From Shigella phage PSD9: DNA of 64,000 nucleotides. This document shows, in pieces, positions 58,261-61,407 of this stretch (positions are counted from its first letter, which is position 1; the number at the start of each line of letters is the position of its first letter). The stretch lies in sequence record MZ561532; one strand, 5' to 3'. The notes beneath the pieces were generated by a model that was not told the DNA's origin, did no database searches, and worked only from the letters and a program-made list of their open reading frames with translations. The position numbers and the translations under genes were made by a program.

Positions 58261-58659
58261 TTATTTCATTTTTGCGAGGCAAATTTCATTGGCTTCCCAT
58301 TGAGCTTGCTTAATAATAGCTTTGGATACAGGAGCCCTTTGGCCATAAGTTTTTGACGTTGAGAGAACAATACATTTGTTTGCTTCATTATGCCAGCCCC
58401 ATGATTTTTCGCCATGAGTACCTTTAACTACAGCTGACACCTCAACAGAGCAACCACCATCAGAAATCTTGGTTTCGACAACCCATTCATTTCTCTCAGC
58501 AGCTTCAATTTCTAATCTAGTTTTTTCTTCATACATCGCGGCCCAATCAGTTTTTGCCAAGTTGAAAGTAAGAGCTTTCTCTAATTCTTTGGCATATTTT
58601 TGTTGTTCAGGTGTTAATGAATTATACAACTCTTGCATTTCTTTATCTTCGATATTCAT
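58261..58659 (-). CDS. hypothetical protein (132 aa)
   Basis: minus-strand ORF. Confidence 0.4.
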   Translation of the reverse strand: MNIEDKEMQELYNSLTPEQQKYAKELEKALTFNLAKTDWAAMYEEKTRLEIEAAERNEWVVETKISDGGCSVEVSAVVKGTHGEKSWGWHNEANKCIVLSTSKTYGQRAPVSKAIIKQAQWEANEICLAKMK

Positions 58660-58717
58660 TATGTTCTCCTCAAATTATGGGCTCATAATATCTTAATCAT
58701 GAGCCCATGTAAACGTT

Positions 58718-58996
58718 TTATTTCATATTATTGAAATAATTTTCTGCATCAAAATCATTACCATGGTAAACTTTGGTAGACGATTTGGCGTAACCTTCAG
58801 CTGAGAACATATTAATCACAACTTTAATTGTATACCACTGTCCATCTTCATTACCCATTACTGCATAGGTTTCATACACCGGGTGTTCAGGACCGATAAC
58901 CTTAATATCGTTAACTGTGGCACCAAATTCTTCCGGAACACATTTCATAAAGAAATTAAACACTTCACCATAATTATCCATTTTACTCTCCTTCAC
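58718..58996 (-). CDS. hypothetical protein (92 aa)
   Basis: ORF downstream of an early promoter cassette. Confidence 0.4.
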   Translation of the reverse strand: MKESKMDNYGEVFNFFMKCVPEEFGATVNDIKVIGPEHPVYETYAVMGNEDGQWYTIKVVINMFSAEGYAKSSTKVYHGNDFDAENYFNNMK

Positions 58997-59001
58997 TCTG
59001 T

Positions 59002-59048
59002 TGTTTTGATAGGTCTATAGTATCATGTTCTACGAAAGAGTAAACATC
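59002..59048 (-). promoter_or_regulatory. early promoter cassette
   Basis: gttttgataggtctatagtatca ... gagtaaac. Confidence 0.5.
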
Positions 59049-59069
59049 TTTTTTAAACCTTTTAGAAAC

Positions 59070-59100
59070 AAAAAAAAGGCCCAACCTTTCGGAAGGGCCT
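59070..59100 (-). terminator. intrinsic terminator hairpin (copy A)
   Basis: aggccc ... gggcct stem with A-run on plus = T-run on minus; identical hairpin at 59696-59724. Confidence 0.6.
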
Positions 59101-59104
59101 AGAA

Positions 59105-59659
59105 TCAGTTCTTGTAGAACCGGAATGGGTTTATGTGGAAGGCTAACATAGCCTTAGGGATTTTACGAGACAAAAGGCTCTTAAGCTTCCAACCACAGTA
59201 CACGCGAAGGTAAAAGGTAATCCCACCAACCTTAAGATATGGAACTGAAGCAAATACACCCCAGGCGTCGTCATTCCACATCCATAACCATCCGTGATGA
59301 GCTTTATCAGGAGAACCGGATTCCACGTCGGGATTACCTCGATAATGGAATTCCGAGCTACAATCACGACCGAGTTTATGGTAAGCAAAGTTATAAGCTT
59401 TATTTCGCCATAGCCAAGCTACTCTCTGAAGATAAACACCACCCGGCATTTTCCTGATGTTAGCCCAACGTTTAATATGACCTTTGTCGCCGTCAATTGG
59501 ATTATCGTATGTCATCATCCAATCAAAGCCATATGGTAATTTACCGGTCTTTTTATTGTGGAAAGGGACTACAAAAGGTGCAAGGATAACAGCCAGAACC
59601 ATAGAGATAAAATCTAGAGGAACCAACAGTACCCAACTCAAATATTTTAAAAGTTTCAT
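59105..59659 (-). CDS. hypothetical membrane protein (184 aa)
   Basis: N-terminal TM helix; Trp/His-rich; late promoter upstream; flanked by identical terminators. Confidence 0.45.
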   Translation of the reverse strand: MKLLKYLSWVLLVPLDFISMVLAVILAPFVVPFHNKKTGKLPYGFDWMMTYDNPIDGDKGHIKRWANIRKMPGGVYLQRVAWLWRNKAYNFAYHKLGRDCSSEFHYRGNPDVESGSPDKAHHGWLWMWNDDAWGVFASVPYLKVGGITFYLRVYCGWKLKSLLSRKIPKAMLAFHINPFRFYKN

Positions 59660-59686
59660 ATTATTTCCTAGGTTAGTTTAACTACA

Positions 59687-59694
59687 TATTTATA
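59687..59694 (-). promoter_or_regulatory. late promoter TATAAATA
   Basis: plus tatttata about 25 nt upstream of the 59105..59659 start. Confidence 0.5.
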
Positions 59695-59695
59695 C

Positions 59696-59724
59696 AAAAA
59701 AGGCCCAACCTTTCGGAAGGGCCT
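59696..59724 (-). terminator. intrinsic terminator hairpin (copy B)
   Basis: same aaaaaaggcccaacctttcggaagggcct element, 3' of the tRNA cluster. Confidence 0.6.
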
Positions 59725-59774
59725 TTAACCTAGGGTAACCTTGTCGGGGTTCCACCTGCTAGGCAAGTGTTTGT

Positions 59775-59866
59775 ACGAAACGCCGGGATTCGAACCCGGT
59801 TATTAAGTAGTTGACGCCACTCAATATTTTTAAAAGGCCGTATCTCGACCATATCCGAACGTTCCG
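59775..59866 (-). ncRNA. tRNA-like element (aberrant; canonical T-arm, no clear anticodon arm)
   Basis: minus strand has CCGGG-TTCGAAT-CCCGG T-arm and a 7-bp acceptor-like closure (CGGAACG/CGTTTCG) but an AT-rich interior I cannot fold as a tRNA. Confidence 0.3.
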
Positions 59867-60108
59867 TCAAAAACGCTACTCGGCTTACGGCAAAGATATT
59901 TCCTCGAATCGATAATTCGGTGCGCCGTTTCTGCTGTGATGTAAGGGGACGTTAACAGATCGTAAAGATTTGTTAATGCCAGTCCTTACTCAGGGAACAT
60001 CAGTCCGACGACTTACCGGTAGCGACCCGGTTTCTTGTTTGTTGCGCCGGTGAATGCTGGTAATCAGTCTTCATACGACGGCTTGACTATATAATAGTCT
60101 TCATTTGG

Positions 60109-60180
60109 TATCCCGCCCTGGGATCGAACCAGGACCGCAAACTTAGAAGGATCGTATGCTATCCATTACACCAGCGGGAC
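60109..60180 (-). tRNA. tRNA-Arg (anticodon UCU)
   Basis: hand-folded cloverleaf: acceptor GTCCCGC/GCGGGAT, D-loop AATGGATA, anticodon loop CTTCTAA, T-arm CCTGG-TTCGATC-CCAGG. Confidence 0.6.
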
Positions 60181-60188
60181 GTAGTTGG

Positions 60189-60262
60189 TGACCCAGACCA
60201 GATTTGAACTGGTAACCTTTCCCTTATGAGGGGACTGCTGCTAACCATTGAGCTACAGGGCC
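60189..60262 (-). tRNA. tRNA with CAU anticodon (Ile2-like or Met)
   Basis: hand-folded: GGCCC acceptor start, D-loop AATGGTTAG, anticodon loop CTCATAA, T-arm ACCAG-TTCAAAT-CTGGT; several stem mismatches. Confidence 0.5.
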
Positions 60263-60267
60263 TTAAT

Positions 60268-60540
60268 TTAAATTACAAATCCAGCAGGAGCATTATCATC
60301 TTTAGCCATGTGCTGAATTGTGTGATAAGTCATTTCTTCAGGAGCAACCAGATAAGCCGCAGCGTTAACTAGTGGAATTATTTTTGGTTTAGCGAATGTG
60401 CTATCGGCAATTGCCATAAAGGGCTCGCCGTCGGTCTCAACTTCGCCAAATTGACATTCATATGAAATAGAACAACGTTTGGTAGTTGTTGTCTTGGTTT
60501 CTGGGTCGTAAAAAGCTAATTTTAATACTAACATAAACAC
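60268..60540 (-). CDS. hypothetical protein (90 aa)
   Basis: minus-strand ORF adjacent to the tRNAs. Confidence 0.4.
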   Translation of the reverse strand: MFMLVLKLAFYDPETKTTTTKRCSISYECQFGEVETDGEPFMAIADSTFAKPKIIPLVNAAAYLVAPEEMTYHTIQHMAKDDNAPAGFVI

Positions 60541-60708
60541 CTCAAATAAAATTAAGTAAAGTAAGTTTGATTAATAGACCTTGTCTATTATGAAAGGTTC
60601 TTTGAGGGAAGAACCTTTGGTAATAGAGGGTATTAATGATAGAGTAATAATAACACATTACTCTTAAAGCATATTACTATTTTTAGGAATAGTCTGGTCA
60701 AATTTGAT

Positions 60709-60999
60709 TCATTGTGGCCACATATTAATGTAATCAAGTTTAATAGAAGCAATCTTCAAAGGATTTTTAAAGATGTCGTATTCGATCAATCCGTTTTCAG
60801 TTGCGGTGTAGAAAGTAAAGTTAACAGAATTATAACGGCGACCATTAACTTTTAGTTTAACGTCGCTTGAACTACGACCAATATTAACCTGTTGGACATC
60901 AAGCACAGCACCTTTGCCAAAGTTGCGAATCAGTAGCTCTGCTGCAACCTGGTCTGAATTATAGCCATTCTCTGGATTAGTAACCTTAACGTATAGCAT
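60709..60999 (-). CDS. hypothetical protein (96 aa)
   Basis: minus-strand ORF. Confidence 0.4.
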   Translation of the reverse strand: MLYVKVTNPENGYNSDQVAAELLIRNFGKGAVLDVQQVNIGRSSSDVKLKVNGRRYNSVNFTFYTATENGLIEYDIFKNPLKIASIKLDYINMWPQ

Positions 61000-61407
61000 T
61001 TAACCCTCGTCTACAATAGTATGGGTATTAGCATTAACAATCTGCCACCAGTCACAGTCAAAACGATTAGAACCGTAACGAGGCTTTTTCTCATTTTCGT
61101 TAATAATATCACGTAGTTCGTCTTCAGAAAATGCTTTAGCGATTAAATCGGTATAGCCACCACGTGGATAATAGTTATCACCCGCGAACAAAAGGAAATT
61201 TACTTTACCAGAAGGAACATATGCTTCCTTAGGATACTTGTTTCCTGCATGGTCTACCACTTCAATATAACGATAAGGGATATCAGTACTTTCAACCCAT
61301 TGCCAAGCTGCAGAAGGGGATTCAAAAGCATCTACACCTAAACGGTTATCTTCATCTTTAGACGGGTTATTTTCATAATCCGCATATACATAATATTCAA
61401 TGTTCAT
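61000..61407 (-). CDS. hypothetical protein (135 aa)
   Basis: minus-strand ORF with ATGA-type overlap. Confidence 0.4.
   Translation of the reverse strand: MNIEYYVYADYENNPSKDEDNRLGVDAFESPSAAWQWVESTDIPYRYIEVVDHAGNKYPKEAYVPSGKVNFLLFAGDNYYPRGGYTDLIAKAFSEDELRDIINENEKKPRYGSNRFDCDWWQIVNANTHTIVDEG

Follow-up and report, generated by a model that had tools for sequence, protein, structure and literature searches.

Two identical terminator-like hairpins around a DUF7338 gene in Shigella phage PSD9 suggest a cassette shuffled by recombination between the repeats

The DNA analysed here is a stretch of 64,000 nucleotides (nt) of Shigella phage PSD9 (record MZ561532), in the following called the window. 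It contains a gene for a protein of 184 amino acids (aa) of the family DUF7338, which lies beside a small operon of transfer RNA (tRNA) and other stable RNA genes and is bracketed by two copies of an exact 29-mer, AAAAAAGGCCCAACCTTTCGGAAGGGCCT (59072-59100 and 59696-59724). No third match with up to three mismatches was found on either strand of the window, and 100 shuffles gave none. The copies form a direct repeat, which stayed exact and 29 bp long when both were extended, with a period of 624 bp. All the genes here are on the minus strand, so the copy at the higher coordinates is located upstream of the bracketed (cargo) gene and the other one downstream, with exactly one open reading frame (ORF) between them. 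The bracket had been described in an initial annotation of the sequence, whose two identical 29-bp hairpins around one 184-aa ORF were recovered by the exact-repeat and ORF searches. The interval it had given for the downstream copy, 59070-59100, does include the repeat, but also two extra A's from the adjoining A-run.

Read from 5' to 3' on the minus strand, the locus begins with two tRNA genes, followed by homologues of T4 rnaD and rnaC (Table 1). A tRNA cluster had been reported next to the cargo gene; the tRNAs do adjoin, but there are only tRNA-Met and tRNA-Arg, and the rest of the unit consists of the rnaD and rnaC homologues. The two tRNAs scored 48.8 and 53.9 bits in Rfam, and beyond them a permissive Rfam scan of 58500-61000 gave only one sub-threshold match and included no model detecting rnaC or rnaD. 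After rnaC comes the upstream repeat copy. A T4-type late promoter motif (TATAAATA) and a ribosome-binding site then lead to the DUF7338 gene, which ends shortly before the downstream copy, and behind this copy an early-type promoter precedes the conserved gene e.8. The motif of this promoter is present 5' of e.8 also in T4, and the record of Yersinia phage fPS-65 annotates a "predicted early promoter" 5' of its e.8 homologue. In this region the sequence identity is 98% with Escherichia phage QL01 and 92-97% with WG01, JS98 and other Dhakavirus, and the window is on this similarity assigned to Dhakavirus (Straboviridae, Tevenvirinae).

Table 1. Coordinates of the features of the locus and of related features in other phages. 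Positions are those of the window unless another locus is named.
Feature	Position	Strand	Basis or remark
tRNA-Met(CAU)	60186-60262	-	ARAGORN; Rfam tRNA
tRNA-Arg(UCU)	60106-60180	-	ARAGORN; Rfam tRNA
rnaD homologue (T4 species 2)	59919-60035	-	104/116 aligned bases identical to T4 rnaD
rnaC homologue (T4 species 1), last gene of the RNA operon	59774-59912	-	136/139 bases identical to T4 rnaC
Upstream repeat copy, predicted terminator of the tRNA-Met/tRNA-Arg/rnaD/rnaC unit	59696-59724	-	Exact 29-mer, RNA fold, position after rnaC
Upstream copy, hairpin	59723-59702	-	Plus closing A-U
Upstream copy, U6 tract	59701-59696	-	
Late promoter motif, T4 type	59687-59694	-	Read from sequence; 1 base past the upstream U-run
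Ribosome-binding site AGGA	59666-59669	-	Read from sequence; 6 nt 5' of the DUF7338 ATG
Cargo gene, DUF7338 protein, 184 aa	59105-59659	-	ORF; ATG at 59659
Downstream repeat copy, predicted terminator after the DUF7338 gene	59070-59100	-	Exact 29-mer, RNA fold
Downstream copy, hairpin	59099-59078	-	Plus closing A-U
Downstream copy, U8 tract	59077-59070	-	
Promoter of e.8, T4 early type	59017-59045	-	GTTTAC 59045-59040, 17-nt spacer, TACTAT 59022-59017
e.8 homologue, conserved gene past the cassette	58718-58981	-	ORF; e.8 in QL01 and JS98 annotation; phrog_2678
Two hairpins of IME341	L018 480-501 and 1128-1149		
Third hairpin core copy, QL01	L022 4247-4268		Outside the window; also in loci L013, L015, L016, L020, L023
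154-aa gene, QL01_137	L001 3603-4067		
205-aa gene, JS98 orf135	L002 3005-3622		
RB51ORF140	L027 1925-2398		Homologue of the QL01 154-aa gene

On the minus strand the repeat reads AGGCCC-UU-CC-GAAA-GG-UU-GGGCCU, with a loop of the GNRA type, and continues into six U's in the upstream and eight in the downstream copy. Folding of the minus-strand RNA gave -17.8 kcal/mol (z about -3.5) for the upstream and -16 kcal/mol (z about -3.2) for the downstream copy, and none of 200 shuffles folded as well as either hairpin. Both copies are GC-rich stem-loops followed by a U-tract on the transcribed strand, and each closes a transcription unit of the same strand at its 3' end, 49 nt past the rnaC homologue and 4 nt past the DUF7338 stop codon, respectively. 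The repeat is by these features a predicted rho-independent terminator in two direct-orientation copies. The hairpins had been called terminators already in the initial annotation, and the stable minus-strand fold with its U-run and the homology to the T4 rnaC terminator agree with this, provided that the element is read on the minus strand. A built-in promoter and terminator scan reported neither the hairpins nor T4-type promoters and was uninformative here; the hairpin was missed because of its 2x2 internal loop. A permissive Rfam match of the terminator to a toxic small RNA family was sub-threshold (19 bits against a cut-off of 50) and was rejected.

T4 has a single hairpin, GCCCCGACCGAAAGGTTGGGGC-U5, 51 nt past rnaC, and no gene between this hairpin and the e.8 promoter. 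The upstream copy is identical to it at 18 of the 22 core positions. Because it shares most of the core, the GAAA loop and the position with the T4 rnaC terminator, the upstream copy appears to be the native terminator of the tRNA/stable-RNA operon. The two have in common the distance of 49-51 nt from rnaC, the CC-GAAA-GG apex, the GC-rich 5-bp base and the U-run. They differ in that the T4 hairpin is present as a single copy and its stem is fully paired (-20.3 kcal/mol), while the hairpins of Dhakavirus and Mosigvirus have a U.U/U.U internal loop.

A bracket of this kind would be uninformative if the repeat were a generic terminator present in many copies. Related hairpins do occur in hundreds of T-even genomes, and a third exact copy of the 22-nt hairpin core was found, outside the window, in each of the six Dhakavirus genomes checked, between convergent uvsW.1 and uvsY-side genes and with the same T6-GTTT tail as in the e.8-side copy. 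Nevertheless, the copies number only two in the 64-kb window and at most three per Dhakavirus genome, and the matches in other genera represent the homologous rnaC site. Also, a crude scan detected just four strong hairpin-plus-T-run sites in the window, two of them the repeat copies and the other two unrelated in sequence. The search for copies at many unrelated sites thus returned a single additional exact copy per Dhakavirus genome, and the generic explanation is largely refuted and very improbable. The exact 22-nt core was present also in two GC-rich viral contigs from the IMG/VR metagenomes (L011 4085-4106 and L019 547-568), with unrelated flanks and without the U-run, probably as a result of convergence of a stable tetraloop hairpin.

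The late expression proposed for the gene in the initial annotation is in line with the exact T4 late promoter motif in front of it, the timing being predicted from this motif. The motif is located 27 nt upstream of the ATG, with AGGA between them after a leader of 17 nt, and it is accompanied by no -35 element. The window contains six TATAAATA sites, of which only the one in the cassette is preceded by a strong hairpin. The same junction of hairpin and TATAAATA was found in JS98, JS10, MX01, LHE83 and QL01, in Mosigvirus KMB38 and in Tequatrovirus RB51 and fPS-65.

Modules and hairpins were mapped on 15 related loci, and five architectures were distinguished between the e.8 promoter and the RNA operon. 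In the window, MX01, LHE83 and JS10, two hairpins enclose DUF7338 alone, and in QL01 and vB_EcoM_005 they enclose DUF7338 together with a 154-aa gene. PSD2002 and IME341 have a 52-bp remnant of DUF7338 and the 154-aa gene between the hairpins. JS98, IME281 and MN04 show the order 205-aa gene, hairpin, DUF7338, hairpin, the middle hairpin being followed by TATAAATA, so that these genomes carry an extra downstream module of hairpin, TATAAATA and 205-aa gene. Salmonella phage ABTNLS3 and vB_EcoM_FB have a single hairpin and nothing else. The left flank of this lone hairpin equals the left flank of the downstream (e.8-side) copy of the window, and its right flank equals that of the upstream (RNA-side) copy. 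When 59101-59724 was removed from the window, the remaining sequence was colinear with ABTNLS3, with no mismatches in the hairpin and a gap of two A's in the A-run as the sole gap. The empty site is exactly the product expected of recombination between the repeats, but an insertion with duplication of the hairpin could equally have started from it. The hairpin is not specific to the cassette; the duplicated element is the resident terminator.

Some further variation was observed in the Dhakavirus loci. The 154-aa and 205-aa genes have their first 25 nt in common (encoding MKTYNEFL) and then diverge. QL01 has a different small terminator (GCCCC-GTCT-GGGGC-T5) between the 154-aa gene and DUF7338, and its DUF7338 gene has lost the TATAAATA that it would have had in front. 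Also rnaC is polymorphic, as a 144-nt segment with this gene is absent from JS98, JS10, MX01, IME281 and vB_EcoM_005, and the approximately 70 nt between tRNA-Arg and rnaD in the window (60036-60105) have no counterpart in T4.

Tequatrovirus showed the same site with its own hairpin variant. In fPS-65, two identical T4-type hairpins 559 bp apart surround a gene preceded by TATAAATA; the record annotates both hairpins as terminators and the junction as a late promoter. RB51 has the same layout with two imperfect hairpin copies, and its GenBank record (FJ839693) describes RB32ORF132c as "flanked by 34 bp imperfect direct repeat". The bracket as such is therefore not new, since annotators had already noted it, but apart from this line no published analysis of the terminator bracket was found in the T4-genome review (PMC2993671) or in the general literature. 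RB32ORF132c/RB51ORF140 of RB32 and RB51 share with the window the rnaC/e.8 site and the layout of hairpin, TATAAATA, gene and hairpin, and differ from it in the T4-type hairpin (GCCCCGACC...), the imperfect copies and the cargo, which in RB51 and fPS-65 is a homologue of the QL01 154-aa gene. In the Tequatrovirus records, e.8 and rnaC are separated by about 718 bp in one class, to which T4, RB3, RB55 and others with a single hairpin and without the gene belong, and by about 1275 bp in the other, occupied class (RB51, RB68, fPS-2, GiZh and others). T4 thus represents the empty state of the rnaC/e.8 site.

Mosigvirus carries the unit at another locus. In KMB38 the DUF7338 gene (76% aa identity to the window) comes after rI, at a great distance from tRNA genes. 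In front of it are AAAGCCCCTTCCGAAAGGTTGGGGC-T5-GTATAAATA and a leader resembling the one in the window, and behind it the hairpin occurs again, with an early promoter next. The two sides of the bracket form an exact direct repeat of 36 bp (period 623 bp). In RB69, the KMB38-type hairpin is present once between rI and mobD.2a. A synthetic empty junction was built from KMB38 and searched against phage genomes, and among the 60 Mosigvirus records sampled it matched without interruption in 50, with a 623-bp insert in nine and partially in one. Exchange between genera at the rnaC/e.8 site is indicated by the natural hybrid bracket of IME341. Its RNA-side hairpin is of the Mosigvirus type (GCCCC..GGGGC), with T4-like sequence beyond it, and its e.8-side hairpin is of the Dhakavirus type.

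As the unit occurs at two resident terminators in two genera, each with empty alleles, the bracket is likely to reflect how the module moves and not a local accident. This occurrence at two loci in two genera is the strongest argument for movement linked to the bracket. A simple local duplication unique to the window phage was rejected, the same bracket being present in three genera and at a second locus. The most probable explanation, to which we assign a probability of roughly 0.7, is that the two identical hairpins mark a cassette that has been shuffled by recombination between the repeats. Such a cassette had been suggested in the initial annotation, and the comparison with related phages speaks for it: Dhakavirus, Tequatrovirus and Mosigvirus all show presence and absence of the insert, and the relatives include empty sites, alternative cargo and a second locus.

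The upstream copy would be the resident terminator of the tRNA-rnaD-rnaC operon. In the module directly behind it, the DUF7338 gene is preceded by the putative late promoter TATAAATA and a short leader that contains a ribosome-binding site, and it is followed by the second copy of the terminator. The hairpins would insulate the gene, so that early and middle transcripts of the RNA operon would stop before DUF7338 and the late transcript of DUF7338 before e.8, where the early promoter would restart transcription. With transcription insulated on both sides, DUF7338 would be produced chiefly at late times of infection. If the direct repeats recombined with each other, by homologous recombination or by replication slippage and possibly via an excised circle as for the PeSL elements discussed below, the module would be lost and a single hairpin would remain. 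In the reverse direction, the module would be inserted at any resident hairpin belonging to the family, and repeats on both sides would thereby be formed again. The end products can be seen in public genomes as empty, occupied and relocated alleles; with the alternative cargo, all the expected states are represented there.

Several observations weigh against this explanation. The hairpins of the different genera differ by a compensatory G-C/C-G swap (GGCCC..GGGCC against GCCCC..GGGGC); transfer between genera mediated by the hairpins would give hybrid stems, and later homogenisation or separate origins would then be needed. DUF7338 is without flanking repeats in STP4-a, PG7, RB43, Miro and FelixO1, and the repeat is consequently not obligatory for its mobility. 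PSD2002 has lost most of DUF7338 by an internal deletion and not at the hairpin. The window and QL01 differ by a 506-bp segment that extends between the start codons of the 154-aa gene and DUF7338 in QL01; its ends are in two similar leaders with their ATGs and not in hairpins. T4 needs approximately 50 bp for efficient recombination, and a repeat of 29-36 bp is short for that. Furthermore, it is from sequence that we infer circles, deletions within populations, termination and late transcription.

Some of the same observations would be expected if the repeats were irrelevant to mobility. The cargo genes would then have brought along their own common T-even-type terminator and landed beside the resident one, entering by illegitimate recombination or by homologous exchange in larger flanks, and selection would keep the copies identical. 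The hairpin family does serve as a plain terminator at sites without a cassette (T4 rnaC, RB69 rI and the uvsW.1/uvsY side in Dhakavirus), some breakpoints of rearrangements in the region are away from the hairpin, and in other phage groups DUF7338 moves without repeats. However, the copies match within each genome, including lineage-specific compensatory changes and flanking bases: the 36-bp repeat of KMB38 includes CTAATCAAA, and RB69 has CTAATTTACTA. Convergent selection is not expected to fix an identical loop, internal mismatch and tail. The empty sites are also the exact one-copy product, and brackets of this kind, with varying cargo, are found at two loci and in three genera. Irrelevance of the repeats is on this evidence unlikely.

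The hairpin coincides with a mosaic boundary, the mismatches between ABTNLS3 and the window rising from 0.9% on its RNA side to 7.2% towards e.8. Such a boundary would be expected also if SegB-like homing endonucleases of the tRNA region drove gain and loss by co-conversion, the hairpins being merely where similarity of the parents resumes. Homing endonuclease genes are present between tRNA-Arg and tRNA-Met in LHE83 (L009 4087-4752) and in the region in AnYang, IME540 and GRNsp7, T4 has segB there, and SegB-driven inheritance of the tRNA region was cited as a parallel mechanism by the authors of the PeSL work (PMC4122927). The window, on the other hand, has no endonuclease gene at 59000-60600, and neither an endonuclease nor a tRNA gene is annotated in the 4.5 kb around the Mosigvirus rI cassette. 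Co-conversion explains spread but not the exact duplication bounding the insert, and as the driving mechanism it is considered distinctly improbable.

Recombination between the terminator repeats is closest to what Krisch and colleagues have described for the PeSL and PmSL (promoter-early and promoter-middle stem-loop) elements, stem-loop-plus-promoter composites which flank accessory ORFs of T4-type phages (Arbiol et al. 2010, PMC2839356; Comeau et al. 2014, PMC4122927). PeSL recombination excising mini-circles was demonstrated by inverse PCR in RB49 and phi1 only (PMC2839356), and an empty site retains one element (PMC2839356, PMC4122927). The likeness includes the composites of stem-loop (terminator), promoter and ribosome-binding site, the direct repeats around small accessory genes in plastic regions, close relatives that differ by exactly the DNA between the elements with one element left, and a proposed mechanism of recombination between elements, excision of a circle and reinsertion at another element. 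Repeats around ORFs that are present or absent, one of them remaining when the site is empty, were found in Dhakavirus, Tequatrovirus and Mosigvirus. Also the 506-bp difference between QL01 and the window resembles the promoter-to-ATG crossovers mapped for PeSLs (PMC2839356). Only the downstream copy with the e.8 promoter has an early promoter past the stem-loop, and this pair looks like an ordinary PeSL of the T4/PST type; the promoter fits the consensus TTTACW-N17-TAYWAT (PMC4122927) except for a 16-nt spacer when counted from the consensus hexamer.

The differences concern mainly the copy that drives the cargo. It has no -35/-10 pair, and in place of a sigma-70-like early or Mot-box middle promoter it has the late promoter motif TATAAATA; late promoters were not mentioned in either of the two PeSL/PmSL papers (PMC2839356, PMC4122927). 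The repeat is a terminator hairpin with its U-run (29-36 bp) and not a promoter-to-ATG crossover segment. The copies are two in the window and three exact ones per Dhakavirus genome, i.e. two to three per genome compared to dozens of PeSLs in hyperplastic regions, and the proposed landing sites are resident terminators of conserved units (the rnaC operon and rI). The bracket is a variant of PeSL-type shuffling with a late promoter and resident terminators, not a new principle, and it broadens the PeSL idea, which concerned early and middle promoters in hyperplastic regions, to include late genes and the terminators of conserved units.

Two other systems offer partial parallels. The morons of lambdoid phages are promoter-gene-terminator units between conserved genes, typically expressed from the prophage and without bounding direct repeats. 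Similar to them, the unit described here is autonomous (promoter, accessory gene and terminator), lies between conserved genes, is patchily distributed and has homologues in unrelated phages, but it occurs in a virulent phage, with a late promoter and a duplicated-terminator bracket. Integron cassettes have attC sites that are imperfect palindromes, and they are excised as circles and inserted at cognate sites by a dedicated tyrosine recombinase, with a single attI platform. The single-gene cassettes bounded by imperfect-palindrome sites are alike in both, but no recombinase is associated with the present ones, the hairpin serves as a terminator as well, and every cassette has a promoter of its own.

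A wider generalisation is possible but doubtful. The T-even hairpin family (5-bp GC base, NN, CC-GAAA-GG, NN, base and U-run) might be a portable, recombinase-free, att-like landing pad, by means of which late-promoter cassettes would hop between resident terminators and between genera. The sites would be rnaC, rI and possibly the uvsY side, where the third hairpin copy of Dhakavirus could be a further landing site. If this were true, terminators would be recombination hotspots, and the system would be a late-gene counterpart of PeSL shuffling. The bracket provides a natural example of how virulent T4-like phages may add, drop and move single accessory genes without breaking the expression of the neighbours. 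The hairpins are suggested as safe insertion sites for the engineering of therapeutic T4-like phages, and genes bracketed by them, such as DUF7338, would be good candidates for host-adaptation functions.

The cargo protein matched the Pfam family DUF7338 (PF24027) with 212 bits (cut-off 27), its residues 1-183 aligning with profile positions 1-179 of 180, and PF24027 was detected in all of the 38 homologues. The protein belongs to phrog_2143, listed as of unknown function in PHROGs. Homologues were present in 591 phage records of many genera, including Felixounavirus (56% identity in FelixO1), and in a few bacterial records. Invariant residues include T50, D52, W82, R85, N86, Y89, R152, G156, W157 and K158, and they suggest a conserved site. 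Hydropathy indicated one transmembrane segment, a hydrophobic helix at residues 2-33, in accordance with the membrane protein of the initial annotation, and the rest of the protein is basic (26 Lys+Arg against 12 Asp+Glu). In the confident AlphaFold2 model (pLDDT 93.5), made with a 34-sequence alignment, a long helix at the N-terminus (residues 2-33) is accompanied by short helices and an antiparallel sheet of five strands. DUF7338 is predicted to consist of an N-terminal transmembrane helix and a basic alpha/beta domain.

DUF7338 had no match in NCBIfam or PADLOC, a sequence profile search of the PDB gave nothing significant, and a structure search of BFVD found only uncharacterised relatives and one protein automatically named "envelope protein", a label for which no support was found. 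No literature on DUF7338 was found. Some of the Felixounavirus homologues are labelled "holin", but no holin family was involved in Pfam, PHROGs or NCBIfam, and the name occurs only in some deposited annotations; an architecture like that of the T4 holin T, with one transmembrane helix and a large domain, was rejected as there was no fold match. The "structural protein" label in YerA41 is only a weak hint and no support for a role of DUF7338, since the particle proteome also held many replication enzymes (PMC7354516). Our best guess, made with low confidence, is that the protein is an accessory factor anchored in the membrane, which would act at the envelope in late infection.

At least five phage groups, among them the unrelated Felixounavirus, have DUF7338 beside or inside a tRNA cluster, which hints at co-transfer with tRNAs or a functional link; a shared hotspot could be behind the linkage as well. 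In FelixO1 the gene is situated between tRNA-Arg and tRNA-Gln and in Karamvirus PG7 between tRNA-Phe and tRNA-Met, PG7 keeping the layout of terminator, CATAAATA and gene. In STP4-a it is found 127 nt past tRNA-Arg, in RB43 and Miro about 1 kb past tRNA-Met, and in Dhakavirus past tRNA-Arg, rnaD and rnaC, Mosigvirus being the exception to the tRNA linkage.

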